From positions 2,946 through 66,945 of the forward strand of contig CAIKKJ010000034.1 in NCBI GenBank assembly GCA_903827955.1: DNA of 64,000 bases. The letters are read 5' to 3'. A program made the position numbers and the translations under genes. Source of the DNA: an uncultured Verrucomicrobia subdivision 3 bacterium. Lineage in GTDB: Bacteria; Verrucomicrobiota; Verrucomicrobiia; Limisphaerales; UBA11358. Within the stretch, counting starts at the first letter, position 1, and every line of letters starts with the position of its first letter. Of this stretch, positions 35,452-60,721 are shown piece by piece. The notes under the pieces are model-generated. The model made no database searches and was not told where the DNA came from. It worked only from the letters and a program-made list of their open reading frames with translations.

Positions 35452-37281
35452 TTACTTGCCGGGAGAAACGATCGGCTGCAACTCGACCTCCAGCACGAGG
35501 TTGCCGCTGGCCGGAACCGTCACATTTACGGCGAGCATATTGAAACTGGGGTTCGGCTCGTTCACGCCGTCGTCCGGCGGCTGAGCACTGGCGATTTCAA
35601 ATCTGGCGTTGGCGGGCGAAATAATTTTTGCGGCGAGCGTTTTGCCATTCAGCCGCAGCATGGCCTGATTCATTTTCAAATTGATTTTTGCGGCCGTGAC
35701 CATCTGCCAGCGGATAGAGAGTCCGGGCTGCGCTGAAGTAATTTCATCGCGTATGCGAACGGAGCGGTTTTCGCCGATGAAAAATTGGCGCACGACATTG
35801 CTGGCCTGGCCGGAAAAAATTTCGGAGAGATCAATCGTCGCGGAGTTCGTGGTGAAGCGCGTGATGCGCGCATCGCCTTTCACGTGATGTAACAGCCCGC
35901 CAAGCGTGAGCGTGTTGTGGCTGAAATTATTCAGCCGGAAGACGCGCCACCGGTCGCTGTTCTGTGACATGTTGAAAAGCGCCCAGCCTTTCGATTCAAC
36001 CGAAAGATAATCCTGCGCGCCAAGGTCGCTGGCCCAGCGAACGCCGTCGGCATCGAGCACAAACGAACCAGCGTCCATGTGCGCGTGGTTCAAGCTGGCT
36101 GAACCGCCCTTCACGGCAAGGAACATGGCGTTGGCATCCGTCCACGAACTGCGTAAAATACCAATCGGATTCGGGCCATCACCAAACCATGTAAGTGGAA
36201 ACGTGGGCGCGGGAATTTCTTCGGGCAGCCCTTTGCACCAAAGCGCGAGCAACGGATTCAAGCTGTCATCGTGTCTGCCGTTGGGCGATCCCGAAAGTTT
36301 TTGCCGGAGAATCCGGTTTTGAGAATAAACAATCGTCGGGTCTTTGAGTCGTTGGGCGAACCAGAATATGGTGGGGTCAAAAACTACGCTGTCGTGGCCA
36401 TCGGAAAAATTAAACGCCCGTCCGGTCGGTCCGATTTGCTCGATGAGCGCCGCTGCGCTCGCGAGGAAGCCAAGTGATTTGGAGAGGTTCCAGTCCGTGC
36501 CCAGCGCCGACTCCAGCGCCGAGATCATCAGCACCTGATACGTAGTGCCGTAATTCCAATACCCCGGGCCTTCAGGATAAACGCCGAGCGGCGCATAAGG
36601 TTCCAGTCCGTTGGGGTTGTTTTTCTTGGCGAGAGTGAGCATTTGCCGCGCGATGGCTGGTTCCTCATCAGCGATCGCCAAAGCTCCAAGCGTCAGCCCG
36701 CCGTAACAAACCTGGTTCCAATTCATCGTCGCATGCGTCCAGAAATAGTTCGTGTTGAGTCCCGGTGTGAGTCCCTTTTCAATCATCGCCTGGCGCAACG
36801 TGCTCCGCGTGGCGGACGGCAGGTCAGCAAACAGCCAGTCGTAACCGATCGCCACGGCGGCGGTCATCTCCGCGGTGTCGAGAAAATGCTTCGTGTTCCA
36901 ATCATTGAACGCGGCGACCGTCAGCAAGTCTTTCTCAGCATGGTCGAGAAAAACTTTTTCGCCGGTCACGCGGTAGGCGAAGCTGCACAACTGCACCCGA
37001 CGAAACGTTTCGCGTGATACGGCCAGCAATCGTTTGCCGTCCTTTTTGTAGATGATAGTCGGTCCGGTCAGTGTCGCGCGGGCCTCCTCAACGACGCGCT
37101 TGAGCAACGCGTCGAGTTGCGGGTCGCTTTCGCGACGGTGACGGATGTCGTCCCAATCCGCACCGGTGATGATCAACCGGGGATGTTCGGGACGCAGGCC
37201 AGTCAAAATATCCGGCGCATCCCCGGCCAGCGCCGTGAAGGCCATCAACCCGGCGGAGAGTAACGTAAGAATTTTTTTCAC
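35452..37281 (-). CDS. heparinase II/III-like polysaccharide lyase family protein
   Basis: Signal peptide present. NHAHMDAGSF motif of the Hepar_II_III family, with an alginate-lyase-like N-domain. Confidence 0.7.
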   Translation of the reverse strand: MKKILTLLSAGLMAFTALAGDAPDILTGLRPEHPRLIITGADWDDIRHRRESDPQLDALLKRVVEEARATLTGPTIIYKKDGKRLLAVSRETFRRVQLCSFAYRVTGEKVFLDHAEKDLLTVAAFNDWNTKHFLDTAEMTAAVAIGYDWLFADLPSATRSTLRQAMIEKGLTPGLNTNYFWTHATMNWNQVCYGGLTLGALAIADEEPAIARQMLTLAKKNNPNGLEPYAPLGVYPEGPGYWNYGTTYQVLMISALESALGTDWNLSKSLGFLASAAALIEQIGPTGRAFNFSDGHDSVVFDPTIFWFAQRLKDPTIVYSQNRILRQKLSGSPNGRHDDSLNPLLALWCKGLPEEIPAPTFPLTWFGDGPNPIGILRSSWTDANAMFLAVKGGSASLNHAHMDAGSFVLDADGVRWASDLGAQDYLSVESKGWALFNMSQNSDRWRVFRLNNFSHNTLTLGGLLHHVKGDARITRFTTNSATIDLSEIFSGQASNVVRQFFIGENRSVRIRDEITSAQPGLSIRWQMVTAAKINLKMNQAMLRLNGKTLAAKIISPANARFEIASAQPPDDGVNEPNPSFNMLAVNVTVPASGNLVLEVELQPIVSPGK

Positions 37282-37284
37282 GAG

Positions 37285-39666
37285 TTATTTCAGATCAGCC
37301 CCAAACTTTATTTCCGCACCGCGAGCCAGCATAAATTCTTTTGTGAGATTCCCATTACGAATCTTCACCGGGCCAGTGCCGCTGAGATTTTTGATCTTAG
37401 CCGCGTCGAGTCTGCCGTTTTTCCATTTGATGCCGACCTCGTAACCACCGCGCGCACGCAGGCCGGAAACCGTTCCCTCCGGCCACGCGGCTGGCAGCGC
37501 GGGGAGCAGTTCAATTTCACCCGCCTGACTTTGCAGCAGCATTTCCGCGATGGCTGCCGTGCCACCGAAGTTGCCGTCAATCTGGAACGGCGGATGCGCG
37601 TCGAATAGGTTGGGATAAGTGCCGCCGCCGCTGCCGCCGAAGTCCGTGCCTTTGCCGCCGGCCGGTTGCAACAGGTTTTGCAGCAGCTTGAATGTGCGGT
37701 CGCCGTCGTGCAGCCGCGCCCAGAGCGCCATGCGAAACGCCGTGGCCCAGCCGGTGCTTTTGTCACCGCGCAGATCGAGCGACTTGCGCGCAGCCTCAGC
37801 GAGCGCAGGCGTGGCGGTCGGTGAAATTTCATCGCCCGGATACAAGCCCCATAGATGCGAGACGTGCCGGTGCGTCGGTTCCGGCTCCTGATATTCTTCG
37901 AGCCATTCCATCACGCGCCCGTCGCTGCCGATGCGCGTGGGCGGCAGTCGGTCGCGCTTCGTTTTCAATTCGACAGTAAATTTTTTATCCACGCCGAGGA
38001 TTTCCGCCGACTCGATGACCGCGCCGAAAAGAAAACGCAGCAACTGGTTGTCCAGCGTCGGGCCGAGACAGACATGCGCATTCTGGCCGTTCGTCATCGT
38101 GAACGCGTTCTCCGGCGAATTCGCCGGCGCGGTCACGAGCCAGTGGTGCGACGGCTCCTCGATGAGCGTGTCCGCAAAAAATACCGCCGAGCCGCGCAGC
38201 ACGGGATAGGCACGTTTCAAAAATTCCCTATCTCCGGTAAATCTCCAATGCTCCCACAGGTGATGGCACAGCCAAGCGGCATCGCTCGGCGTGAGTCCCC
38301 ACGCCGCGCTTTCGCCGGGCGAGGTGAAGCCCCAGGCGTTCGCCAAAACGTGTGCTACCCAACCATTGGCATTGTAATATTTTTTTGCCGTGACCGCGCC
38401 CGGCGCTTGTAACGATTCGATGTAGGCGAATAGCGGCTCGTTTAGCTCCGTCAGGTTGCAGACCTCCGCGGGCCAGTAAATCATCTGGAGGTTCACATTC
38501 AGGTGATAGTCCGCGCCCCACGGCGGCGAAACCGTGTCCGCCCACAACCCTTGAAGGTTCGCGGGCATGGAACCGGGCCGTGACGATGAAATCAGCAGGT
38601 AACGACCAAAGTTAAAATACAGAACCGCGAGCGACGGGTCGTGCGCCAAGTCTTTTGCCGCGATGCGCTCCGGCGTGGGCTTCGTGGAAATTTCTGAATT
38701 CGTGGAAGCTAAATCCAGTTTCACGCGATTGTAAAATTTCTGGTAATCCGCAACGTGGGCGGCCAGTAGCGCGGAATAATCGTTCTTCTCCACCGCATTC
38801 AGATCATTCTCCACTGCCACCGCAACATCCCACCGCTTGGTTTTGGCAAAACGCTCATAATCCGTCACAGCCGCGATGAACATAAGAACTTCGTCCGCGC
38901 CGCTCACGACTATTTTTCCATCCGCCGCCGCGATTTTTCCACCGGTGTTTCGCACGCGCAGTCGCGCGGCATATTTCACGCCTTCACCACCCGCGCCGTT
39001 CGTCATGGCACCGGTCATCAGCAATTCGTCATTGCCGACATTTTTGGTTTTGAATCGTTCCGGCCGGTCGAGCATCGCTTCAAAAGAAATTTGCCCCGGC
39101 TTGTCCGCCGTAAGCCGCATGACGATGATCTGATCCGGCGCGCTCACAAAAATCTCGCGGGTGAACTTCACATCGCCGCGCGAAAAATCCGTGCGCGCCG
39201 TGGCCGCGGTCAAATCCAGTTCGCGGCGGTAATCCGTAGCGGCGTTCGTATCGGCATACGAAAATTTCAGGCGCAAATCGCCGAGCGTTTGATACGAGCC
39301 GTAAGGCACTTCGCCCGGATGACCGTTCGCCGAGCCGCGCCCGGCGCAGGTAAAATTGCGATTCACCAACCGCTCGGCTTCGACGTTTTTGCCTTCAAGC
39401 AGCAGCCGGCGGATTTCCGGCAGCGCGGCGGCGGCGTTCGTGCGGTCGGCGTCCTGCACCGAGCCAGACCACAGCGAATTCTCGTTCAACGCCACGCGTT
39501 CGTCCTCGATGCCGCCGAAATCCATCGCGCCAAGGCGTCCGTTGCCGAGGGGCGTGGACTCCAGAAAATTTTTTGCGGGCTTCGCGAGCCAGACGGTGGT
39601 GTCCGGCGAAAGAGCGAAGGCGGATGAAGTCGCAGCGAGCGCGAGCAGCGTCAGGAGTTTTTTCAT
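37285..39666 (-). CDS. glycoside hydrolase family 95 (alpha-L-fucosidase type)
   Basis: Signal peptide present. The [10 protein letters not shown]...NE.SLWSG N-terminus is typical of GH95. 793 aa. Confidence 0.8.
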
Positions 39667-39672
39667 GCTGTA

Positions 39673-41904
39673 TTAATTTCCAGTCTGCTGGACGATTTCG
39701 GCGGACTCAAGTTTCAACACGGTTTCGTTCGTTCCGAAATCTGGACGGTCTTTCGGCTCGATGAAAATGGGCGCGTCTTTGCGCAGCGGCAAAATCTCCA
39801 GCCGCAAATCGCCGGTGAAAATTTCCTGACCGTAGCGATTGAGTCCCAGATCAAACGGTCGGCCGGCGAAGAAATTATCTGCGATCAACTTGCCATTCAG
39901 CGTAAGCCGCGCGGCGTCGCCGATGTAACGGATGCGGAGCAATGGATTTTTCGCGAGGTCGATTTTGGCAGGTAGCTTGATTTGCCAGACGGCGGCGTTC
40001 GTGAAATCGGAATCCGTCGGCGCGGCCGCGATCTGGGATTTGCCAACGAGCGGGATGTCGCGGGCTGGGCCGGCGTTGCGAAGCGAGGTGGCTTCCACTT
40101 TTTGCTTTGCGAACTTCAAGGGCACTTCGATGGAAACCTTGTCGTCAATTTTTTGCAATGCGAGCGAATCAGCTTCGTTCAGCAGATAGATTTGAATCGG
40201 TTTCCCGGACGCACTTTTCAGATTCGTTGGACGTTTGCGATCGGGTTTCAGCCCGAAAAATTCAGCGGGCGATGACTTCAGGCTTTTCGAATCGAAAACA
40301 AATTCTGCGGGCACGCCGGGGGTTTCCGCGAAGAAAAATGTGTTGCCGTGGCGGCAAATCGGTTGGGCGGTAGCATAAATCAATTTCGCGCCGCCAAGGT
40401 CCATGTTGAACGGCCAGAAGTAAAATCCGTCTGCCGGAATCGTCACGGGCTGCTGCGGGAAGACGAGTTCGCCGCCGGGCAGATGCAGTTTGAATTGAAA
40501 ATTGGTTTTGGCAGGCAATGGATGGAGCCGCTGATAATTGTTCACGAACACATAGCCACTGTTGCCATCGGAACGCACGGACCAGCGCAAGGTGGTAAAA
40601 TCATTTTTGTTCGTCACACGCAAGTCGGGCAACGTCGTCGGCATTTGTGCGAGCGGCGCACCGAAGTCGTGAAGGAACAAATGCAGCCGACGTAACCAAT
40701 AGTATTGCGGATTGATCTGGCCGAACTCGCCGATGGGCGCGTTGAAGTCGTAGGACTTCACCGGCAGATCATTCACGTAGCCGGTGGCGGTGGATTCTTG
40801 GAGCGTCGAGAGTTTGCCATCGGGATTTTGGCCGCCGTGATACATGTAATAGCCCAGCAGCGAACTGCCACTGCCGAGTTGCGTGAGCACCACGGCCTCG
40901 ACATCGCGCTCGTCGTAATTGATGCGGCGGTGATACGAAGCAGGCATACCGCCACCGATTTCGCAGGTGAGATGCGGGTATTTTTCCGTGCCGCTGGTAT
41001 CGCCGGCCTTTTCAACTTTCAACGTGTCATTGCCCACGCCGGTGTCGGTGCGCGTGATTTTAAAGGTGAAATTTTCCCAATCGTTGCCGTCCATCGGCTT
41101 GATGTTGCGCGACCAGAAACCGTCGGGATACGCGCCGAAGAGCGGCAGCAATTCACCGAGCGGCACCGGCGTCTTCATCGCGGGCCAGCCGGTCTTGATG
41201 TAGAGCGGCACGTCAAGGCCGGCCTCAATCGCCATTTTTTTCAGCGCCATCAAATAATTTGGCGAGCCGCCGAATTCATTGTCCACCTGGATGCCGATGA
41301 CCGGGCCACCATCTTTCCAAAGTTGGCCGGAAAGTTGTTTGGCGATTTCGGCGTAGAGAATTTTCGTCGCGGCGAGAAAGTTGGTATCCGTCGAGCGCAG
41401 CTTCCAGTCCTTGTGCGCCTGCACCCAGTCGGGAAAACCACCGTTGCGCACTTCGCCGTGACACCACGGGCCACAGCGGACAATCACTTTCAGTCCCAAT
41501 TCACCGCACGTCTGCAAAAATTTTTTCATATCACGCTGGCCACTCCAATCCCATTGACCCTCGATTTCCTCGTGATGAATCCAGAAAACGTAAGTCGCCA
41601 CGATGTCCACGCCGCCGGCTTTCATCTTGCGCAATTCCTCGCGCCACTCGGCTTGCGGCACGCGCGAGTAGTGCATTTCGCCCATCACCGGAAATACGGG
41701 CGCGCCGTCGAAGAGCAGGCTGCGACTGTTCACGGAGATTTCGTGACCAGCGGGATTTTTGGTGGTGCCGAGTTTGAAATAACCCGTCTCAGCCGGCGGC
41801 GGCGTTTGGATACTGGCGGAAACAACTTCAGCGTGAAGCGAAAAGGAAATTGCCAAGCTGGCGCAGACACCGGCCAGCACCAGTTTTGTAGAACGGGAAA
41901 TCAT
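39673..41904 (-). CDS. glycoside hydrolase family 35 beta-galactosidase
   Basis: GEMHYSRVP...W...L.KMKAGG...V.TYVFW..HE and QVDNEFG motifs are present. Confidence 0.8.
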   Translation of the reverse strand: MISRSTKLVLAGVCASLAISFSLHAEVVSASIQTPPPAETGYFKLGTTKNPAGHEISVNSRSLLFDGAPVFPVMGEMHYSRVPQAEWREELRKMKAGGVDIVATYVFWIHHEEIEGQWDWSGQRDMKKFLQTCGELGLKVIVRCGPWCHGEVRNGGFPDWVQAHKDWKLRSTDTNFLAATKILYAEIAKQLSGQLWKDGGPVIGIQVDNEFGGSPNYLMALKKMAIEAGLDVPLYIKTGWPAMKTPVPLGELLPLFGAYPDGFWSRNIKPMDGNDWENFTFKITRTDTGVGNDTLKVEKAGDTSGTEKYPHLTCEIGGGMPASYHRRINYDERDVEAVVLTQLGSGSSLLGYYMYHGGQNPDGKLSTLQESTATGYVNDLPVKSYDFNAPIGEFGQINPQYYWLRRLHLFLHDFGAPLAQMPTTLPDLRVTNKNDFTTLRWSVRSDGNSGYVFVNNYQRLHPLPAKTNFQFKLHLPGGELVFPQQPVTIPADGFYFWPFNMDLGGAKLIYATAQPICRHGNTFFFAETPGVPAEFVFDSKSLKSSPAEFFGLKPDRKRPTNLKSASGKPIQIYLLNEADSLALQKIDDKVSIEVPLKFAKQKVEATSLRNAGPARDIPLVGKSQIAAAPTDSDFTNAAVWQIKLPAKIDLAKNPLLRIRYIGDAARLTLNGKLIADNFFAGRPFDLGLNRYGQEIFTGDLRLEILPLRKDAPIFIEPKDRPDFGTNETVLKLESAEIVQQTGN

Positions 41905-53578: not shown

Positions 53579-54523
53579 ATGCGCGTCTCCATCCATGCCT
53601 ACACCGACTCGATGTTGAACCAGTTCAATGCGCTCGCTGGCCGGCAATTCAATTTGCAAAACCAGGCCTCGACCGGGCTGCGCGTGCAGTCCGCTTCCGA
53701 CGACCCGGCGGCGATGGCAAACACGCTGGCGCTCATCGCCAAAAAAAATGCAGACACGCAATACGCACAGAACATCACTACCCTGCAAGATCGGGGCAAC
53801 CTGATTTACGGCGTGCTGCAAACGCTCCAAGCTCACACCACCCGCGCCGGTGAACTCGCCACCATCGGCGCGAACGACCCTACCTCCAGCGACGCCTTGA
53901 AAAATTACGCCAAGGAAGTGAACGACATGATCGAGGACACGGTGAAGCAGGCAAATTCGAAAGACACCACCAGCGGGACGTATCTCTTCGGCGGCACTGC
54001 CAGCAATTCGGCGCCGTTTAGTGTGACGCGCAATGCCAACGGCGACATTTCCGGTGTGACCTACAACGGCTCCAGTTCGGTGAATCAATCGGAGATCGGC
54101 GAGAACCAGACGTCTTCAGTGGATGTGCCGGGCGTGAACAACGGCGCGACCGGTGCGCGCGGCCTATTCACCGACAGCCAGTCGGGCGCAGATTTTTTCA
54201 ACCACCTGATTTCGTTGCGCGACCATTTGCTCGCTGGCAACAAGACGGCAATCACCAGCAACGACTCGCCGAACATTCAGAAGGACGAAAACAATCTTGC
54301 CTACCAAGTCGCCAGCAACGGCGTCGCGCAAAACCGGCTCGCCACAGCGGCCTCGTTTATCTCCGACCATTCGCAATCACTCGACAAAGCGATTTCGAAT
54401 CAGTCGTCCGCCGACCTCGTGCAAACGATGGTCGAGTTGAACCGTGCACAAAACGGTTATCAAGCCGCGTTACAGACGAGCGCGAAGGTCATGCAGATGT
54501 CCATCCTGAATTACATTTCATGA
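53579..54523 (+). CDS. flgL: flagellar hook-associated protein 3 FlgL
   Basis: Flagellin-like N and C termini. Follows flgK. Confidence 0.85.
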   Translation: MRVSIHAYTDSMLNQFNALAGRQFNLQNQASTGLRVQSASDDPAAMANTLALIAKKNADTQYAQNITTLQDRGNLIYGVLQTLQAHTTRAGELATIGANDPTSSDALKNYAKEVNDMIEDTVKQANSKDTTSGTYLFGGTASNSAPFSVTRNANGDISGVTYNGSSSVNQSEIGENQTSSVDVPGVNNGATGARGLFTDSQSGADFFNHLISLRDHLLAGNKTAITSNDSPNIQKDENNLAYQVASNGVAQNRLATAASFISDHSQSLDKAISNQSSADLVQTMVELNRAQNGYQAALQTSAKVMQMSILNYIS

Positions 54524-54731
54524 AAACCGAAACCCACTTGGAAATGCGCCGGCTGGCTGACTGGGAAAATCTTTCCCCGGCGGAGCAGATTTTGCCGGGC
54601 GGCTGGGCGGAAAAAGTTTCTACTTGGAATAAAATCGATTCAAAACCAAAAAAATGGCTGTTTTTCGTGAGTTTTCGCGTTAGTGCGCGAAAATTATTAC
54701 GTGGCACGGCCGTTGCTTAAGGATACCTGCA

Positions 54732-55169
54732 ATGAAATGCGCTGAAATGACGGAACCTGAAATCACGGCAAGGACGCCGCACACCAACCATGTGCGAATC
54801 CCCACCGGGCTGTTGGGTTTCGAGCAGATCAAGGACTACGTCCTCACGTCGAACCCCGACGAAGAGCCGTTCGCTTGGCTGCACGTCCAAGACAACTCGG
54901 CGCTGGCCTTCGTGGTCATTGACCCGTTCGTCGCGTTGCCGAGCTACTCGCCGGACATCCCGAAAATGGATGTGGAATTCCTTGGCTTGGCAGATTCCGC
55001 CGACGCCATGTTGCTCGCCATCGTGACCGTCAAAGACGACGGCGCCGCGACGATGAACCTGAAAGGCCCGCTCGTCATCAACCGTCACACGCACACCGGC
55101 AAACAGGTGATCATCAGTAACGCGGGCGATTACTCGATCAAACATCCGCTGCCGGCGGCACAGGAATAA
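54732..55169 (+). CDS. fliW: flagellar assembly factor FliW
   Basis: GLLGFE....Y.L.......PF.WL......LAFVVIDPF pattern. Confidence 0.85.
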   Translation: MKCAEMTEPEITARTPHTNHVRIPTGLLGFEQIKDYVLTSNPDEEPFAWLHVQDNSALAFVVIDPFVALPSYSPDIPKMDVEFLGLADSADAMLLAIVTVKDDGAATMNLKGPLVINRHTHTGKQVIISNAGDYSIKHPLPAAQE

Positions 55170-55181
55170 AAGGGAATAACT

Positions 55182-55424
55182 ATGCTCATCCTCTCGCGCA
55201 AAATCGGTGAAAGCATCGTGATTGATGGACGTATCCACGTCAAAGTCATGCGCGTCGACGGCGAAGTGGTGAAGCTCGGCATCGAGGCCCCGATGGAAGT
55301 GCCCGTGCATCGCCAGGAAGTTTACGAAGAAATCCAGCGCAGCAATCAGGCCGCGCTGACCAAACAAAACGCGCCGCTGCCAAAATTGCCGAAGCTCGGC
55401 GGTGTGTCGAAAAAGTTGAAATGA
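55182..55424 (+). CDS. csrA: carbon storage regulator CsrA
   Basis: MLILSRKIGESIVIDG.I.V.V......VKLGIEAP..V.VHR.EVYE.I. Confidence 0.95.
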   Translation: MLILSRKIGESIVIDGRIHVKVMRVDGEVVKLGIEAPMEVPVHRQEVYEEIQRSNQAALTKQNAPLPKLPKLGGVSKKLK

Positions 55425-55573
55425 ATTTTGCGGCGCAAGCCGCAGCAGTTGTCCAGTGATTATCGTCGTCACTAACCACGATGGCGAGACCACTGGCTCC
55501 TTCCCCGGGCGGGTCAGCAATGGCCCGCCCGGCCTTAAACTCGCACGGATGCGAACTGATTTTATAGCCAAGA

Positions 55574-58500
55574 ATGAACCCTGCATCCAAGCCTGTTCAC
55601 ATTCTGAAACCGCATCGGCCGGAATTTCTCTGGAGCCCCACGCGCACCGAACTCATCACCACCAAATTCATGCGCAACCGCGTGCTCTTCACCACGCTCG
55701 CGCACCAAATGCTTCCGCGGCTGCGAAAGGAAAAGAATCGTCCGCTGCGCCTGCTCTTCTGGGCCTGCTCCACCGGCGCGGAACCTTACACGCTGAAATT
55801 TCTCCTTGGTCCTGACTCGCAAGACGAAATCGTCGGCATTGATTTCGATGCCGGTGCGATCAAGCAGGCGCAATCAGCCGCGTATCATCCGGACACCTGG
55901 ACGATGTTCTTCGACGGCCAGAAGAAACTGCTGACCGAAGCCGAGGTGAACGAATTTTTTGAACCAGCCATGGCAGAACCCACCCGCACCGTCGCGGCCA
56001 AGTATCGCAAAAACGTCCACTTCATGACCGGCGATCTTTTTTCGCTGACGCCAGCGGTTCCCGAAAAAAGTTTTGACCTCGTCGTCTGCAACAACCTCTT
56101 GCTGCATCTCAAAGACGCCACGGCGGATGCCGCGTTTGATTATCTGTTGCGCTATGTCGGCGACGGCGGCCTGCTGCTCACTTCCGGTTGTAATCCCAAG
56201 GTGCGTGCCACGGCGGCCCATCGCCTGAATCTTTTGCCGTTGCCCGAAAAAATCACAGAGATTAGTCAGAACTGGGCGGGCGTCTCCGGCGCATGGCATT
56301 TTGCGCAGCGTCCGGCTTGGGCGTGGCCCGATCTGGTGGAAAGCGACCCCGATTACGCGTTTCAAGCAGGCGAAATCTTCCAGCGCGATCCCGAAAACTC
56401 CGTGGAAATTCAGGCTGAATCTGCTCCTGCTGTCAGCCCGCAAAAATCTTCTCCGAAGAATATCATCATTACCGGCTCGACGTTCTGGAATCCGGGCGAT
56501 GACTTTGTCCGCGAAGGGGTGATCCGCGTGCTACGCGAAACCTTGCCCGGCGAAACGCTTAATTTCCTTTTCTACAATTTTAATCCCGATGCTTTGCCAC
56601 ACGTTGGCGAGCTTCCGCACAGCAACGTTGTCTCTCATGGCGATTTGGAAAGTTTCCGCGACCATGTAGATGCTATCGTCGTTGTCGGCGTCTCAGCGGG
56701 ACACGAGCTGAAACCGCTCTACCGCTGGGTGCTTGCTAATAATCTTGCTCAAAAAGTTTTTCTCATCAGCGGCCATTACGAAAGCCCCTACGCGGCGGAA
56801 CACATTGTGCAGGAACCTGAAGCGTCCATCTTCCGTCAGGCGCGCGTGCTCATTGGTCGCACCACCAAGTATCCCGAATTCATCCGCGATAACAACATTG
56901 CCTATCATCGCGTGAATTGCCCCGCGCTACTGTCTGTGGCGGAAGTCAAAGCTGTTGCTAGTGGGAAAAAAATCGAGCGCATCGGGTTTTCCATCCAGCT
57001 CCCGCCGTCCTTGGGCGGAATCATCAACCAATCCTGCGGCGAGGAACCGTATCGCCTCACGTTGGAAGCGCTGCATTCGTTGGCCAAGGATTACGCGGTC
57101 GAAGTCGTTGCGCATCACAAGACGGAATATTTTCATTTTCTTAAAGAGCTTGCAGGCACCGGAATTCCCGTGGTGTTTTCATCGTTCTATCAGGATCTGT
57201 TTGCGACCTACCGCCGCTACGACTTGGTCGTGACCACGCGGCTGCACACGAGTTTGTTTGCCAACGGCCACGGCATCCCCGGCATCATCATCAACGACAC
57301 TGACCGCCACACGCACGCGCTCGAAGGTTTTCTCCATTCGCCGTGGGTTAATACCCGCGAAACTTTTCAGGCCGCTTTCGCCCGTTGGCAACAGGCTGAC
57401 TTAAGTGCCGTTGCTCTTGAATCACATAATTTCAAATCTGATTTAATTTCCCGCTACGTCCAAATCCTCCGCCCCGCTATGACTGAGCCAACTCAAACTC
57501 CCGTTGCGACTGCCAACACCATTCTCGCGACGGCAAAACATATACCCATCGCGACCAATCTGGACGGCGCGAGCCGCATTCTATTCGTCCGCACGGATTC
57601 CATCGGCGACGCCGTGCTTGCCTCCAGCATGCTGGAGCCGTTGAAGCAGCGTTATCCGAACGCTGAGATTGGCGTGTTGTGCCAGGCGCATGTCGCGGAA
57701 CTATTCGCCGCGTCTCCGTTTGTCAGTTCCGTCATTTGTTACGAGCGTAAACAAGTTGAAACCAATTCTGTCGCCCGCGCAGAAATTCTCGCGGAGATCG
57801 CCGCGTTCAAGCCGGACGTCGTTTTGAATTCCGTCCGCCCGCGTGACAAATTTTCGGATGACCTCACGCTTGCCATCGCAGACACGCTCCACATCGCCAT
57901 CGAAGGCGACCTCTGCAACATCACGCCCGCTGATCGCGCCGCCGCGCGGAACCATTACGAATTTATCATCCCGACGCCGGACGAGCACCGCATCGAACTG
58001 GCTCGTCATTCAGATTTTCTGCGCGGCCTCGGCATCGAAACGTCCTCCTTGCAGCCCGTGACCTGGACCACGCCGGAAGATGAATTGCTCGCGGATGAAT
58101 TCTTCAAAGTGCAGGAATTGAATCCGAATAAAACCATCGCCGTTTTTCCCGGCGCGCAGCACGACGTCCGTGTTTATCGCGGTTATGCGAGCGCTTTAAA
58201 AAATCTTTCCGGCTACCGCTTCCTGATCTTCGGCGACGCTTCGCAGTCCAAGCTGGCTGAAGAAATCGAATTGCAGATGCCCGGCCGCACCGTAAATCTT
58301 TGTGGGCGCTCCACGCTTCGCGAAACGATCGCGCTCGTGCGTCGCTGCCGGCTTTACGTGGGCGCGGAATCCGCCGGGGCGCATATCGCCTGCGCGGTCA
58401 GTGTGCCGAACGTGGTGTTGTTCGGCGGTGGACATTTCGCCCGCTTCATGCCTTACAGCCCGCTGACCTCGTCGGTGGTGTTGCCGCTGAATTGTTTCGG

Positions 58501-59830
58501 TTGCAACTGGCGTTGTTCCTTCAAGCGCCCGCATTGCACGAAAGATCTCGCATCGGATGTCCTCGCCGAAGCCATCCGTCAGACGCTGGAGAAAAAATCC
58601 TCGCGCCCGCGCTTCTTCCTTCAATCCGCGAATTCTTGGAAGGGCGGCATGAACCTGCCGCTTTGGCAGCGACCAGACGCGTGGCTCAAAGGTTTGGACG
58701 CGGAAGTCATCGAAGTGGATAGCACATCAAAAATCACTCCGGATAATTTGGTAGCCGATTTCAAGCTGCCGGTGCCGCCGCCGCCTTCAAACCACGAACG
58801 CGTGGCTTGTCCTTCCTGCGGCGGTCACGATGCCAAGCGCATGCGTCAAAGTGCGGACATTGTGCAGTGCGACACTTGCCAAACCGTTTATCTGCGCACG
58901 CGCCTCACGCGTGACGCAATGCGCAAGCTTTACCAAAGCTACGCCGACGACGGCTCGCACATGGCGTTGCCGAAGTCGCTGGCTGACGCGGAACAAAGCG
59001 GATTGAAGCGCGATTATTTTTTGAATGAAATTTTACAATTCGTGCAACCCGGCGGCGGCTTTCTCGATGTGGGCTGCGGGTGGGGCGCGTTTCTTTTGAA
59101 CGCCCGCAGCAAAGGTTTTTCCCCGCGTGGCATTGAGTTGACGAAAGCCTGCGTGGGCTATGCGAACTCGCAATTGCAGATTCCCGTGACCGATGTGCAA
59201 CTGGATGAATGCGATATCGCGCCCGGCAGCCTGCGCGTGGTAACGATGAACCATGTCTTTGAACATCTTCCGGATCCGCGGGCAGCCTTGAAGAAAATCA
59301 TTGAAGCCTTGGAACCCGGCGGAATGTTCTGCGGCATCGTGCCGAACTTCGATTCCGTCTGCTCGGAAGTCCTCGGTGAAAAATGGTTTTGGCTTGATCC
59401 GAATTATCATTACCAGCATTTCACGCCCGCCACGGTGCGCAAAATCCTGGAAACCGCCGGCCTGGTCGTGGAAAAAATCTATACCGCCACCGGTGATTAC
59501 GGCGTGGAAGCCGTCCGCAAAGTTTGTCAGCAACGCGACCCGCAGTGCGCCGATGATCATTATTTTCAAACCGAACTGGCGCGCTATGAAATAGCCGGGC
59601 ACGGCGAGGAAATTCGTTTCTTCGCCCGCAAACCGGCGACGCCCGCACCTGTTCCGCCCAAAGTCGAGACCATCGCGGATGACAAAATGCTGCTCATCCC
59701 CGAAATCATGCCGGAGCCTGCGCCCGTGGTGTCGGTCAGCCACGCCGAGTTCCACCGCCGCCCGCGGCATCCCGTAAACCACACAGGTTTCCTCGTTCTG
59801 CACGAGGTTGATGGCTCCGGCATTCTTTAA
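55574..59830 (+). CDS. 1418-aa multidomain enzyme: CheR-type SAM methyltransferase + polysaccharide pyruvyl transferase + GT9 (heptosyltransferase-family) glycosyltransferase + zinc-ribbon/class-I SAM methyltransferase
   Basis: FMRNRVLF...LRLLFWACSTGAEPYTL...FDLVVCNNLLLHL (CheR). NPGDDF...TTRLHTSLFANGHGIPGI (PS_pyruv_trans). RILFVRTDSIGDAVLASSMLEPLKQRYP...GAESAGAHIA (GT9). CPSCGG...CDTC, then FLDVGCGWGAF...VTMNHVFEHLPDP (MTase). The last ~65 codons are antisense to cheB. Confidence 0.75.
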   Translation: MNPASKPVHILKPHRPEFLWSPTRTELITTKFMRNRVLFTTLAHQMLPRLRKEKNRPLRLLFWACSTGAEPYTLKFLLGPDSQDEIVGIDFDAGAIKQAQSAAYHPDTWTMFFDGQKKLLTEAEVNEFFEPAMAEPTRTVAAKYRKNVHFMTGDLFSLTPAVPEKSFDLVVCNNLLLHLKDATADAAFDYLLRYVGDGGLLLTSGCNPKVRATAAHRLNLLPLPEKITEISQNWAGVSGAWHFAQRPAWAWPDLVESDPDYAFQAGEIFQRDPENSVEIQAESAPAVSPQKSSPKNIIITGSTFWNPGDDFVREGVIRVLRETLPGETLNFLFYNFNPDALPHVGELPHSNVVSHGDLESFRDHVDAIVVVGVSAGHELKPLYRWVLANNLAQKVFLISGHYESPYAAEHIVQEPEASIFRQARVLIGRTTKYPEFIRDNNIAYHRVNCPALLSVAEVKAVASGKKIERIGFSIQLPPSLGGIINQSCGEEPYRLTLEALHSLAKDYAVEVVAHHKTEYFHFLKELAGTGIPVVFSSFYQDLFATYRRYDLVVTTRLHTSLFANGHGIPGIIINDTDRHTHALEGFLHSPWVNTRETFQAAFARWQQADLSAVALESHNFKSDLISRYVQILRPAMTEPTQTPVATANTILATAKHIPIATNLDGASRILFVRTDSIGDAVLASSMLEPLKQRYPNAEIGVLCQAHVAELFAASPFVSSVICYERKQVETNSVARAEILAEIAAFKPDVVLNSVRPRDKFSDDLTLAIADTLHIAIEGDLCNITPADRAAARNHYEFIIPTPDEHRIELARHSDFLRGLGIETSSLQPVTWTTPEDELLADEFFKVQELNPNKTIAVFPGAQHDVRVYRGYASALKNLSGYRFLIFGDASQSKLAEEIELQMPGRTVNLCGRSTLRETIALVRRCRLYVGAESAGAHIACAVSVPNVVLFGGGHFARFMPYSPLTSSVVLPLNCFGCNWRCSFKRPHCTKDLASDVLAEAIRQTLEKKSSRPRFFLQSANSWKGGMNLPLWQRPDAWLKGLDAEVIEVDSTSKITPDNLVADFKLPVPPPPSNHERVACPSCGGHDAKRMRQSADIVQCDTCQTVYLRTRLTRDAMRKLYQSYADDGSHMALPKSLADAEQSGLKRDYFLNEILQFVQPGGGFLDVGCGWGAFLLNARSKGFSPRGIELTKACVGYANSQLQIPVTDVQLDECDIAPGSLRVVTMNHVFEHLPDPRAALKKIIEALEPGGMFCGIVPNFDSVCSEVLGEKWFWLDPNYHYQHFTPATVRKILETAGLVVEKIYTATGDYGVEAVRKVCQQRDPQCADDHYFQTELARYEIAGHGEEIRFFARKPATPAPVPPKVETIADDKMLLIPEIMPEPAPVVSVSHAEFHRRPRHPVNHTGFLVLHEVDGSGIL

Positions 59831-60721
59831 CTGCTGCATGCCTTGCGCGCCATCGCGCCCCATGCCCGTGAGTAAAACGCCGACGGCATTCGCCCCGGCG
59901 CAACGCGCGGCGGAATTAAACAGCATGTCCACCGCCGGTCGCGTATGGTGTATCGGCGGATCCTGCCGCAACTGAACCCGGTAAGCATTATTTTCCCAAC
60001 CGACGACCATGTGATAGTCGCCCGGGGCAACCAATGCCGTGCCCGGCCGCGCTTCATCGCCATGCACCGCCTCGCGCACTTCCATGGCGCATACCTCATT
60101 CAAGCGGTCGGCAAACGTCTTGGAAAAAATCGGCGGGATGTGCTGCACGATCAAAATGGCCGGCAAACCCTCGGGCAGTCGCATGAGCACGTCCTTGATC
60201 GCTTCGGTGCCGCCGGTGGAGGCGCCAAGCACGATGAGCTGGCGTGACTGATAATTTCCCGCCGCTTCGACGTGGCCGACGGGCGCGGACTTGACCGCCG
60301 GACGCAAATTGGTCAAGCGTGCGCGGATTGCGCCCTTGACGCGACGCGCCAGCTGGTCGCGCAAATCGCCGAGGTTCCAGGCAGACTGCGGCTTGGCCAA
60401 CACGTCCACCGCGCCAAATTCCATCGCGTCCAGTGCGGCCTTGGAGCCAGCCTGGGTCAGCGAGCTGATGATGATGATCGGCATGGGCCGATGCTGCTGC
60501 ATGATGCGGAGGAACGTCAGTCCATCCATGCGTGGCATCTCGATGTCGAGCGTCATCACGTCGGGGTTCAATTCCAGAATTTTTTCGCGTGCCACGAACG
60601 GATCGCACGCGGTGCCGACCACTTCGATTTCTGGATCTTGCGACAAAGCCTCGGTGATCATCCGCCGCACGACGGCAGAATCATCCACAACCAGCACCCG
60701 GATTTTTTTGGCAATGCTCAT
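59033..60721 (-). CDS. cheB: chemotaxis response regulator protein-glutamate methylesterase CheB (recognisable CheB ends near 59735; first in-frame stop only at 59033)
   Basis: REC domain (VLVVDDS...DIEMPRMDG) and methylesterase domain (LGASTGG, VQHIP, TGMGRDGA, VVYGMP). The ~230 codons after GVAD are antisense to the methyltransferase domain of 55574-59830 and are not CheB-like. Confidence 0.8.
   Translation of the reverse strand: MSIAKKIRVLVVDDSAVVRRMITEALSQDPEIEVVGTACDPFVAREKILELNPDVMTLDIEMPRMDGLTFLRIMQQHRPMPIIIISSLTQAGSKAALDAMEFGAVDVLAKPQSAWNLGDLRDQLARRVKGAIRARLTNLRPAVKSAPVGHVEAAGNYQSRQLIVLGASTGGTEAIKDVLMRLPEGLPAILIVQHIPPIFSKTFADRLNEVCAMEVREAVHGDEARPGTALVAPGDYHMVVGWENNAYRVQLRQDPPIHHTRPAVDMLFNSAARCAGANAVGVLLTGMGRDGAQGMQQLKNAGAINLVQNEETCVVYGMPRAAVELGVADRHHGRRLRHDFGDEQHFVIRDGLDFGRNRCGRRRFAGEETNFLAVPGYFIARQFGLKIMIIGALRVALLTNFADGFHAVITGGGIDFFHDQAGGFQDFAHRGGREMLVMIIRIKPKPFFTEDFRADGIEVRHDAAEHSAGFQGFNDFLQGCPRIRKMFKDMVHRYHAQAAGRDIAFIQLHIGHGNLQLRVRIAHAGFRQLNATRGKTFAAGVQKKRAPPAAHIEKAAAGLHEL

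Follow-up and report, generated by a model that had tools for sequence, protein, structure and literature searches.

A putative multidomain glycan-modification enzyme encoded beside fliW-csrA in the flagellar cluster of an uncultured Verrucomicrobia bacterium

Most of what is known about flagellin glycosylation comes from Proteobacteria, Campylobacterota and Firmicutes, and separate genes and nonulosonic acids are usually involved. A survey of the enterobacterial flag-2 systems found glycosyltransferase family 9 (GT9), PF04230 (WcaK), Methyltransf_23/24/25 and FkbM as separate genes in the variable region for flagellin glycosylation (PMC6993521). These families (with PF04230 in a WcaK-like form), as well as GT2 and GT4, are common to known flagellin islands and the locus described here (PMC6993521, PMC5109656). 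In FlmG of Caulobacter crescentus, tetratricopeptide repeats (TPR) form the flagellin-binding module (PMC7591256). In the present study, we analyzed a stretch of 64 kb (the window) on contig CAIKKJ010000034.1 of an uncultured Verrucomicrobia subdivision 3 bacterium, and in particular a giant open reading frame (ORF) that starts with ATG and comprises 1418 codons (55574..59830, plus strand). Its translation, Pfam matches and hydropathy indicate a soluble, multidomain, putative glycan-modification enzyme that is truncated at its 3' end. Judging from the sequence comparisons below, this fused four-module enzyme probably belongs to a variable glycosylation island and synthesizes or decorates a glycan of flagellin. 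Our literature searches returned nothing relevant on this architecture or on flagellin glycosylation in Verrucomicrobia or Planctomycetes.

The first-pass annotation of this DNA had claimed a single ORF of 1418 codons linking four domains, situated just after csrA and converging on cheB. Such an ORF is present, and the gap between the end of csrA and its start is 149 nt. We divided the product into D1 (aa 1-290), D2 (aa 291-660), D3 (aa 661-1062) and D4 (aa 1063-1345), and called domains with the curated cut-offs of Pfam-A, which upheld all four of the families assigned; the zinc ribbon of D4 was seen in the sequence. NCBIfam equivalog models were also scored, and none was assigned to any of the domains, the models for lipopolysaccharide (LPS) heptosyltransferases, CsaB and methyltransferases all falling far under their cut-offs. 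The N-terminus of the product agrees with that of a homologue, P0002. Since an identical protein of 1418 aa is encoded on nine public contigs from at least three samples, the domain fusion is not an assembly artefact. No 19-residue hydrophobic window above 1.6, signal peptide or transmembrane segment was found in the protein, which is predicted to be soluble and cytoplasmic.

The position of the gene, directly behind fliW (54732-55169, plus strand; Pfam FliW, 1e-34) and csrA (55182-55424, plus strand; Pfam CsrA, 1.2e-22), recurs among its relatives. A search of 5.8 billion proteins yielded 38 homologues (P-numbers), and those of 59-77% identity are encoded right after fliW-csrA in loci L003, L004 and L008, and after fliW-csrA-flagellin-TPR-RGP in L006. 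The locus of P0003 (65% identity) has the order flgK-flgL-fliW-csrA-enzyme, followed by GT2 fragments and then by fliD and flagellin; in L003, fliD and flagellin lie 5-7 kb downstream. The same order up to the enzyme is found for P0005, with five glycosyltransferase genes behind it, and the locus of P0013 reads fliW-csrA-flagellin-TPR-RGP-enzyme, followed by a glycosyltransferase of 2218 aa. That of P0016 reads fliW-csrA-81 aa-enzyme-GT9/GT1-TPR/GT2, with no other flagellar genes nearby. Furthermore, a survey of 185,579 genomes of species representatives recovered 36 loci encoding D2, in Verrucomicrobiota, Planctomycetota, Ignavibacteria, Calditrichia, Desulfobacterota, Acidobacteriota and further groups; a metagenome-assembled genome (MAG) of Limisphaerales, at 78% identity, was the best match. 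Informative were the 31 loci for which 3 kb or more of sequence is available upstream; in 12 of them, flgK, flgL, fliW, csrA or flagellin stands immediately upstream on the same strand. These 12 come from at least four phyla and include Verrucomicrobiota, Brocadia, Pirellulales, Bryobacter and Calditrichia. The proportion expected for a random neighbourhood of 20 kb in a 4-Mb genome is about 0.5%. Over all loci collected, fliW-csrA or fliW-csrA-flagellin stands immediately upstream in L003, L004, L006-L011, L014, L015, L017, L019, L024, L025, L031 and L036, and the fliW-csrA order of the window is also seen in nearly all of 92 metagenomic loci. The flagellar link suggested by the first-pass annotation was thus borne out by synteny in other genomes, and in many of the relatives csrA and the enzyme gene are separated by a gene for flagellin. 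These comparisons support the view that linkage to the flagellar system is a conserved synteny across phyla and not a coincidence of the window. Three of the loci (L011, L012 and L015), 61-73% identical to the window enzyme and with the same flagellar synteny, come from MAGs labelled Pseudomonadales or Bifidobacteriaceae, and are likely to be mis-binned or mislabelled contigs.

The module composition of the homologues is variable. D2 is present in all 38, D3 in most and D1 in six, and D4 is nearly unique to the window protein. The partner modules, which differ between members and occur in shuffled order, include FkbM, Methyltransf_24, GT2, GT4, TPR, radical S-adenosylmethionine (SAM) and a domain of about 270 aa that has no annotation. 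The domain of about 270 aa lies between D2 and GT9 in most members (P0008-P0038; for example, at aa ~770-1040 of P0009), with the pattern 'LPVHFFTIVLNG.PFI.HHI...WHWHI.EGVA...H'. It is well conserved, no specific Pfam family was seen for it, and it is absent from the window protein; in L052 it forms the first free-standing gene of the island. When the D2 profile was compared with 1.84 billion representative sequences, 540 clusters were matched at E<=1e-3, and about 38 clusters (50% identity) scored above 450 bits, mostly in proteins of 1,000-4,171 aa. The hallmark D2 domain is therefore rare and mostly embedded in mega-enzymes. Rhomboid-family genes were noted beside the enzyme in two unrelated loci, at 1451-2326 of L006 and 8517-10004 of L046; the latter is fused to TPR repeats and overlaps the start of the enzyme gene by 4 nt.

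The region past fliW-csrA or fliW-csrA-flagellin appears, from the genes found there, to behave like a hypervariable flagellin glycosylation island. Its boundary is marked by a structured element of about 82 nt (55451-55532, plus strand), recognized by conservation and a consensus fold. The element is conserved in L004, L008, L010 and L015, with further instances in L048-L139; its 21-nt core is unique in the window, and 92 metagenomic stretches carry the element. Nearly all of these 92 instances are downstream of csrA, at a distance of 40-170 nt, or of a flagellin gene that follows fliW-csrA, at about 45-55 nt. At 72 metagenomic loci, the genes that come first past the element encode modification enzymes of more than 20 clusters unrelated to each other; free-standing zinc-ribbon methyltransferases are the commonest (20 loci). 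Others encode SAM methyltransferases (some followed by D2/D3), a canonical pyruvyl-transferase fusion and multidomain proteins of 1,600-2,300 aa, and further island genes encode glycosyltransferases, radical SAM enzymes, acetyltransferases and sugar nucleotidyltransferases.

The boundary element itself consists of a 7-bp helix P1 (55451-58 with 55490-97), one pair of which occurs as CG (43), UA (30) or UG (7), enclosing a variable inner hairpin with at least three sequence types by eye. P1 is followed by an invariant unpaired tract, GGCUCCUUCCYC, and then by P3, a GC hairpin of 10 bp (~55505-55532). In the consensus, 99.2% of the cells are paired, versus at most 51% with the partners slid. The covariation score was 0.140 versus 0.111 in shuffles, none of 500 shuffles reaching 0.140, in a test in which variation was under-sampled because both helices were partly fixed by the search pattern. 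The plus strand alone accommodates the G-U pairs. A search of Rfam with the intergenic region between csrA and the giant ORF, including the element, gave no match at E<=1, and we regard the element as a candidate new RNA family tied to fliW-csrA-flagellin operons. Its role may be that of a recombination anchor, or it may represent the end of a transcript or a small RNA rich in C. The possibility that it is the leader of the giant gene was rejected, since it tracks the 3' side of csrA or flagellin while the downstream genes vary. Pairing of its invariant CUCCUUCC tract with GGA-rich flagellin leaders was also considered and dropped, as neither of the two leaders recovered (L015 and L069) contains a complement. 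Scans of 54400-56000 for sigma-70 promoters and intrinsic terminators gave counts no higher than in shuffles, and P3 in the window is without a U-run, so that a canonical terminator is not supported there.

Among the four modules, the most conserved is D2 (aa 295-636; 56456..57481, plus strand), a PF04230 (polysaccharide pyruvyl-transferase)-like domain of GT-B fold, as called by Pfam and AlphaFold2. It is 46-73% identical to the window sequence among the homologues, with 70 invariant columns, and PF04230 was matched by all 17 aligned members (best E 1.5e-15). A single-sequence search of the PDB with D2 gave no match, and the D2 profile gave a sole, weak match, the yeast pyruvyl transferase Pvg1p (5ax7; E 0.32), at the T/D-R-L-H-A...G-I-P motif. 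The AlphaFold2 model, made with 17 homologues, has a predicted local distance difference test (pLDDT) score of 85.4, a predicted template-modelling (TM) score of 0.85 and a GT-B fold of two Rossmann halves; its nearest solved structures are generic, namely UDP-N-acetylglucosamine (UDP-GlcNAc) 2-epimerases and GT-B glycosyltransferases at TM scores of 0.5-0.58. D2 is thus a divergent domain of PF04230 type. Like the PF04230 pyruvyl transferases CsaB, WcaK and Pvg1p, it passes the Pfam cut-off and has a GT-B-like fold with two Rossmann halves, and it has the above motif in common with Pvg1p; in contrast to them, it is very divergent, and the NCBIfam CsaB model scored 20 bits against a cut-off of 213. 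On the sequence comparisons, D2 is best described as a separate, rare and highly conserved PF04230 subfamily, and as the hallmark of the family.

D3 (aa ~667-1003; 57572..58582, plus strand) was assigned to the GT9 fold by Pfam, by profile comparison with the PDB and by AlphaFold2. It matched Glyco_transf_9 (PF01075) at aa 809-976 (E 1.3e-13, 51.3 bits versus a cut-off of 22), and its profile matched 3tov (8e-19) and WaaF (1psw; 1e-18). The AlphaFold2 model (pLDDT 84.2) has WaaF, 3tov and WaaC as its top folds at TM scores of 0.67-0.81 (1psw, 0.71/0.79; 3tov, 0.75/0.81; WaaC structures 2h1h, 2gt1, 6dfe and 2h1f, 0.62-0.68/0.72-0.77), and as modelled the domain appears to be a genuine GT9-fold domain. 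The N-terminal R673-x-D675-x-I-G-D679 (R673-T-D675-S-I-G-D679 in the window) is invariant in the family, and this region aligns to the start of the heptosyltransferase I model (TIGR02193, positions 1-78). The Asp of the G-D motif may be the equivalent of the catalytic Asp of WaaC. With WaaC, WaaF and 3tov (a Veillonella GT9 protein), D3 has in common the GT-B fold, a match above the Pfam GT9 cut-off and the N-terminal x-D-x-x-G-D motif. However, its identity to them is just 16-18%, it has an extra invariant CxxCxxxCx6C motif, and, unlike the LPS heptosyltransferases, it lies inside a soluble fusion protein with no LPS gene context. The cysteines of the extra motif (C974-x2-C977-x3-C981-x6-C988) are kept in at least 90% of the members. 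The iron of TibC, a protein heptosyltransferase, is bound by four conserved cysteines towards the C-terminal end of the C-lobe, which also help in recognizing the substrate (PMC4358343). TibC/BAHT O-heptosyltransferases resemble D3 in having a GT9-like catalytic domain, which in TibC acts on protein. The four cysteines of D3 lie at a comparable position but with another spacing (x2, x3 and x6 in D3 versus x2, x15 and x11 in TibC), and the giant protein is without the N-terminal beta-barrel of BAHT/TibC. We tried D3 as a TibC/BAHT-like protein heptosyltransferase and rejected it (profile E 0.04; TibC outside the top 50 structural matches), so that the similarity to the iron finger of TibC would be one of analogy only, and not of membership.

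The two remaining modules are class-I SAM methyltransferases by Pfam. D1 (aa ~1-262; 55574..56359, plus strand) matched the SAM-binding domain of CheR, PF01739, at aa 29-202 (E 6e-20, 71.9 bits versus a cut-off of 27), its best match in the PDB was CheR (5ftw; E 9e-10), and the FWACSTGAEPYT motif is directly visible in its sequence. D1 therefore resembles the chemoreceptor methyltransferase CheR in its SAM-binding domain and in its similarity to solved CheR structures. However, the helical CheR_N domain (PF03705), which contacts the receptor, was not matched in D1 by Pfam, merely 28 residues preceding the SAM domain, whereas a canonical gene with CheR_N and CheR is present about 5 kb downstream of the giant ORF on the same contig. 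Without CheR_N, a role of chemotaxis type is not implied by the CheR-type domain. D1 is common to P0002-4, P0015 and P0016, with C-terminal placement in some, and recurs only within these glycan-enzyme fusions. D4 (58793..59608, plus strand) combines a zinc ribbon, C1079-x2-C1082-x16-C1099-x2-C1102, with a Methyltransf_23 domain (PF13489; aa 1154-1300, E 9e-27, 94.2 bits versus a cut-off of 27); a match to Prok-RING_1 at aa 1074-1108 was under the Pfam cut-off. In the PDB it has weak similarity to generic methyltransferases and to the sugar C-methyltransferase TcaB9 (E 3e-3). The nucleoside diphosphate-sugar C-methyltransferases of TcaB9/TylC3 type consist of an N-terminal Cys4 zinc site, a class-I methyltransferase and a C-terminal sugar-binding domain. 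CxxC-x16-CxxC and Methyltransf_23 are present in D4; no C-terminal domain of Methyltransf_14 type was detected by Pfam in the giant protein. In P0004, a divergent zinc-ribbon methyltransferase likewise follows GT9.

The first-pass annotation had missed a 3' truncation of the gene: 1387 codons are native, and the last ~31 codons are antisense to cheB. In the closest relative, L010, a Pro/Ala-rich linker (59609..59734 in the window, plus strand) leads into a C-terminal GT2 domain, as it does in other relatives, and the protein runs on as '...GPEPLVSVVVSTYQSEKFIRACLENL...EIIVVDSGS' (also given as 'PLVSVVVSTYQSEKFIRACLENL...EIIVVDSGS'), which is the N-terminus of GT2. The window protein agrees with L010 up to '...PEPAPVVSV' (aa 1387, nt 59734) and then diverges; tblastn homology ends at aa 1388. 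Six-frame comparison identified the tail of the ORF (aa 1388-1418, 31 codons; 59735..59830, plus strand) as non-native. A corresponding limit was found in cheB (59033..60721, minus strand; Pfam Response_reg and CheB_methylest), an ORF of 562 aa in which residues 1-329 (60721 to 59735) are native. Its Pfam match reaches positions 1-162 of the 174 in the CheB_methylest model, and homology to solved CheB structures stops at aa 329, nt 59735 (the alignments end at residue 332 of the 356 of 6ymz and at 323 of the 349 of 1a2o). The last ~24-26 native residues and the stop codon of cheB are lost, and the frame continues instead for 233 codons antisense through the giant gene. Because the homology limits of the two genes abut within one codon (59732-59737), a deletion or similar rearrangement apparently took away the GT2 domain and the end of cheB together with the stop codons of the two genes, and the window protein is, on this comparison, a truncated form of a five-domain enzyme. 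We also considered the tail of cheB (aa 329-545), with an apparent 50% identity to L010, as a real extension of CheB, and rejected it as an artefact of antisense reading through the conserved coding region of D4. Public gene calls on the same contigs omit cheB and call spurious small ORFs instead; the mapped deletion is a clean example of how a tail-to-tail gene fusion misleads gene callers. All residues of D2 and D3 that are invariant in the family are retained in the window protein, and thus the four remaining modules look functional. With the loss of the C-terminal GT2 domain, the window copy might make a shorter or different glycan.

We infer the following donor and acceptor chemistry and order of reactions for the putative flagellin-glycan enzyme. 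The substrate would be flagellin, or a glycan already on flagellin, which would be modified before export. D3 would transfer a sugar from a nucleotide sugar, and D2 would add a further group, which by the name of the family could be a pyruvate ketal formed from phosphoenolpyruvate. The two SAM-dependent methyltransferase domains may methylate the glycan or, less likely, a protein, and fusion in a single polypeptide could permit channelling of the consecutive steps. The gene stands last in the late flagellar operon flgK-flgL-fliW-csrA, a place taken in relatives by flagellin or flagellin-modification genes. If this proposal is true, a pyruvylated and methylated type of glycan is added to flagellar biology, together with a natural system for studying channelled multi-step glycan synthesis in one polypeptide.

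Several observations weigh against this assignment. As the first-pass annotation had stated, no flagellin gene was found in the window, apart from the flgL-like ORF, and no nucleotide-sugar pathway genes were found near the giant ORF; upstream of flhA there are instead glycoside hydrolase and purine genes. No flagellin-binding module (neither TPR nor Maf) was matched by Pfam in the window protein, while TPR repeats are fused in some relatives. Truncation may have partly disabled the gene. In both sequence and fold, the nearest matches of D3 are LPS heptosyltransferases and not TibC. The PF04230 match of the window D2 (E 1.9e-6, 28.5-29.4 bits versus a cut-off of 25.3) is confined to aa 540-574, that is, to 35 residues at model positions 242-277 of 280, and Pvg1p is absent from the top 50 structural matches of the D2 model. 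Pyruvyl transfer by D2 would thus follow from the name of the family, and the pyruvyl-ketal and methyl decoration expected by the first-pass annotation was overstated, because it relied on family names and the fold search led to generic GT-B enzymes. Finally, 19 of the 31 informative loci (~60%), those of more distant homologues, have no flagellar gene within 10 kb; therefore, the D2/GT9 module is not exclusively flagellar.

The last of these points, together with the nearness of D3 to LPS heptosyltransferases II and I by profile and fold and the lack of a flagellin gene in the window, would fit an enzyme whose acceptor is not flagellar, be it a glycolipid like the LPS core, a glycan of the cytoplasm or cell surface, or some other protein; the gene would then lie behind csrA through hitch-hiking in a recombination-prone spot. 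We consider this unlikely. The NCBIfam equivalogs for LPS heptosyltransferases I, II and III scored far under their cut-offs with D3 (70 versus 134.6, 55 versus 170 and 53 versus 185 bits, respectively), the protein is soluble as predicted, and no export, flippase, lipid-carrier or priming genes (Wzx/Wzy/ABC/priming transferase) were found in any homologue locus examined. According to precomputed Pfam labels, four of the non-flagellar loci (L046, L047, L140 and L141) are compact islands with GT2, GT1/4, GT9, methyltransferase, aminotransferase, ATP-grasp and B12-radical-SAM genes, which likewise are without export, flippase and priming genes. Thus, homologues do not lie consistently in LPS or capsule loci; the close ones are consistently flagellar, and the distant ones are neither flagellar nor in LPS or capsule loci. 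Furthermore, the same-strand position right after fliW-csrA or flagellin recurs in at least four phyla, and the contents of the islands match known flagellin glycosylation regions.

Another explanation concerns the role of D2, which could be an acceptor-recognizing priming transferase for the first residue rather than a pyruvyl transferase, with GT9 and the methyltransferases merely elaborating the glycan. D2 is the sole module found in all 38 homologues, and its conservation (45-78% identity across phyla and 70 invariant columns, while all partner domains vary) fits the flagellin-specific transferase of known systems and not a tailoring enzyme; its best structural matches also bind nucleotide sugars. 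However, all members pass the PF04230 cut-off and keep the T-R-L-H...G-I-P motif common with Pvg1p, the characterised PF04230 members are, to our knowledge, all pyruvyl transferases, and D2 is equally conserved in loci without flagellar genes, so that we regard this role as quite unlikely. Very unlikely is the explanation that the gene is a decaying remnant, left non-functional or neutral by the rearrangement. For it speak the loss of the native 3' end at 59732-59737, where 31 non-native codons follow, the junk extension of 233 codons in cheB, and the lack of the flagellin gene that relatives have at this place. Against it, 1387 native codons are open, D2 and D3 keep every residue that is invariant in the family, D1 and D4 keep their SAM motifs, the one sequence is fixed across three or more independent samples, and the domains are autonomous and occur in many combinations, so that the loss of one need not disable the rest.

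If the giant enzyme modifies flagellin, the location of its gene would link it to the FliW-CsrA checkpoint, and there might be a regulatory link as well. The scan for terminator-like structures detected a hairpin, UCGCA-CGGA-UGCGA (55541-55554, plus strand), whose loop presents GGA and which precedes the start codon of the giant ORF by 20 nt. In L010 it is kept as GCGCA-CGGA-UGCGU at the same distance despite an insertion of 130 nt upstream, in L003 and L011 GGA motifs are found at the Shine-Dalgarno site instead of a loop hairpin, and the flagellin leaders in L006 and L019 have a two-GGA arrangement. The hairpin resembles, as a lead and not as a test, the consensus from systematic evolution of ligands by exponential enrichment (SELEX) for CsrA and the sites in the hag leader of Bacillus subtilis. 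By this analogy it is a candidate CsrA site, through which the giant gene may be under CsrA control. A precedent is the reported CsrA-dependent control of jhp0106, a flagellin glycosyltransferase gene of Helicobacter pylori (PMC5368276). A wider and rather doubtful conjecture is that the PF04230-like/GT9 mega-enzymes form an unrecognised class of single-polypeptide, assembly-line enzymes of protein glycosylation, spread horizontally across phyla, with the highly conserved D2 as the part that recognizes the acceptor and the shuffled modules as the writers of a glycan particular to each lineage, and that in Verrucomicrobiota their expression is tied to filament assembly by the FliW-CsrA switch via the GGA hairpin and the C-rich boundary RNA.

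The remaining genes around the giant ORF are those of a flagellar and chemotaxis cluster. On the same strand and 5' of it are, in order, flhA, flhF, flgA, flgH, flgI, a rod-binding gene, an flgN-like gene, flgK, an flgL-like gene, an ORF of 66 aa, fliW and csrA, and on the opposite strand, converging on it, are cheB, an HDOD gene and cheD. The ORF of 66 aa (54520-54720, plus strand), between the flgL-like gene and fliW, has no Pfam match and overlaps the flgL stop by 4 nt; gene calls on the public contigs of this organism include it. Genes for a heparinase II/III-like protein and for GH95 and GH35 glycoside hydrolases (35452-41904, minus strand) were found directly before the flagellar cluster; this set is typical of polysaccharide-degrading Verrucomicrobiota and is seemingly unrelated to the giant enzyme.

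One of the nearest described systems is FlmG, a flagellin O-glycosyltransferase of TPR and GT-B. Both enzymes are modular, soluble, cytoplasmic members of the flagellar gene set (as predicted for the window protein), and several relatives of the window protein have TPR fused or adjacent. However, the window protein itself is without TPR, its glycosyltransferase domains are GT9 and PF04230-like and not of the FlmG type, and it has two methyltransferase domains. The locus resembles the flagellin glycosylation islands (variable region VR1 of Enterobacterales flag-2, the flagellin glycosylation island of Geobacillus, and those of Pseudomonas and Campylobacter) in that hypervariable glycosyltransferase and tailoring genes are anchored beside flagellin and late flagellar genes. 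It differs from them in that the activities are fused in polypeptides of 1,000-4,000 aa with shuffled module order, that the anchor is fliW-csrA or fliW-csrA-flagellin with its boundary marked by a conserved RNA-like element, that no nonulosonic-acid pathway or Maf gene was seen, and that the hosts are Verrucomicrobiota, Planctomycetota and other little-studied phyla. The first-pass annotation knew of no described system with this make-up. This should be tempered as regards the families, which are known as separate genes in flag-2 regions (PMC6993521), and neither the enzyme families themselves nor the concept of a flagellin glycosylation island is new. New are the fusion into mega-enzymes, with a rare and conserved PF04230-like domain at their core, the phyla of the hosts, and the anchor of fliW-csrA together with the boundary element. 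Thus, the genomic logic of the locus is a known one, in which a variable island for decoration with sugars adjoins a conserved flagellar anchor, but here it is seen in Verrucomicrobiota and other environmental phyla, with a different toolkit and very large modular proteins.

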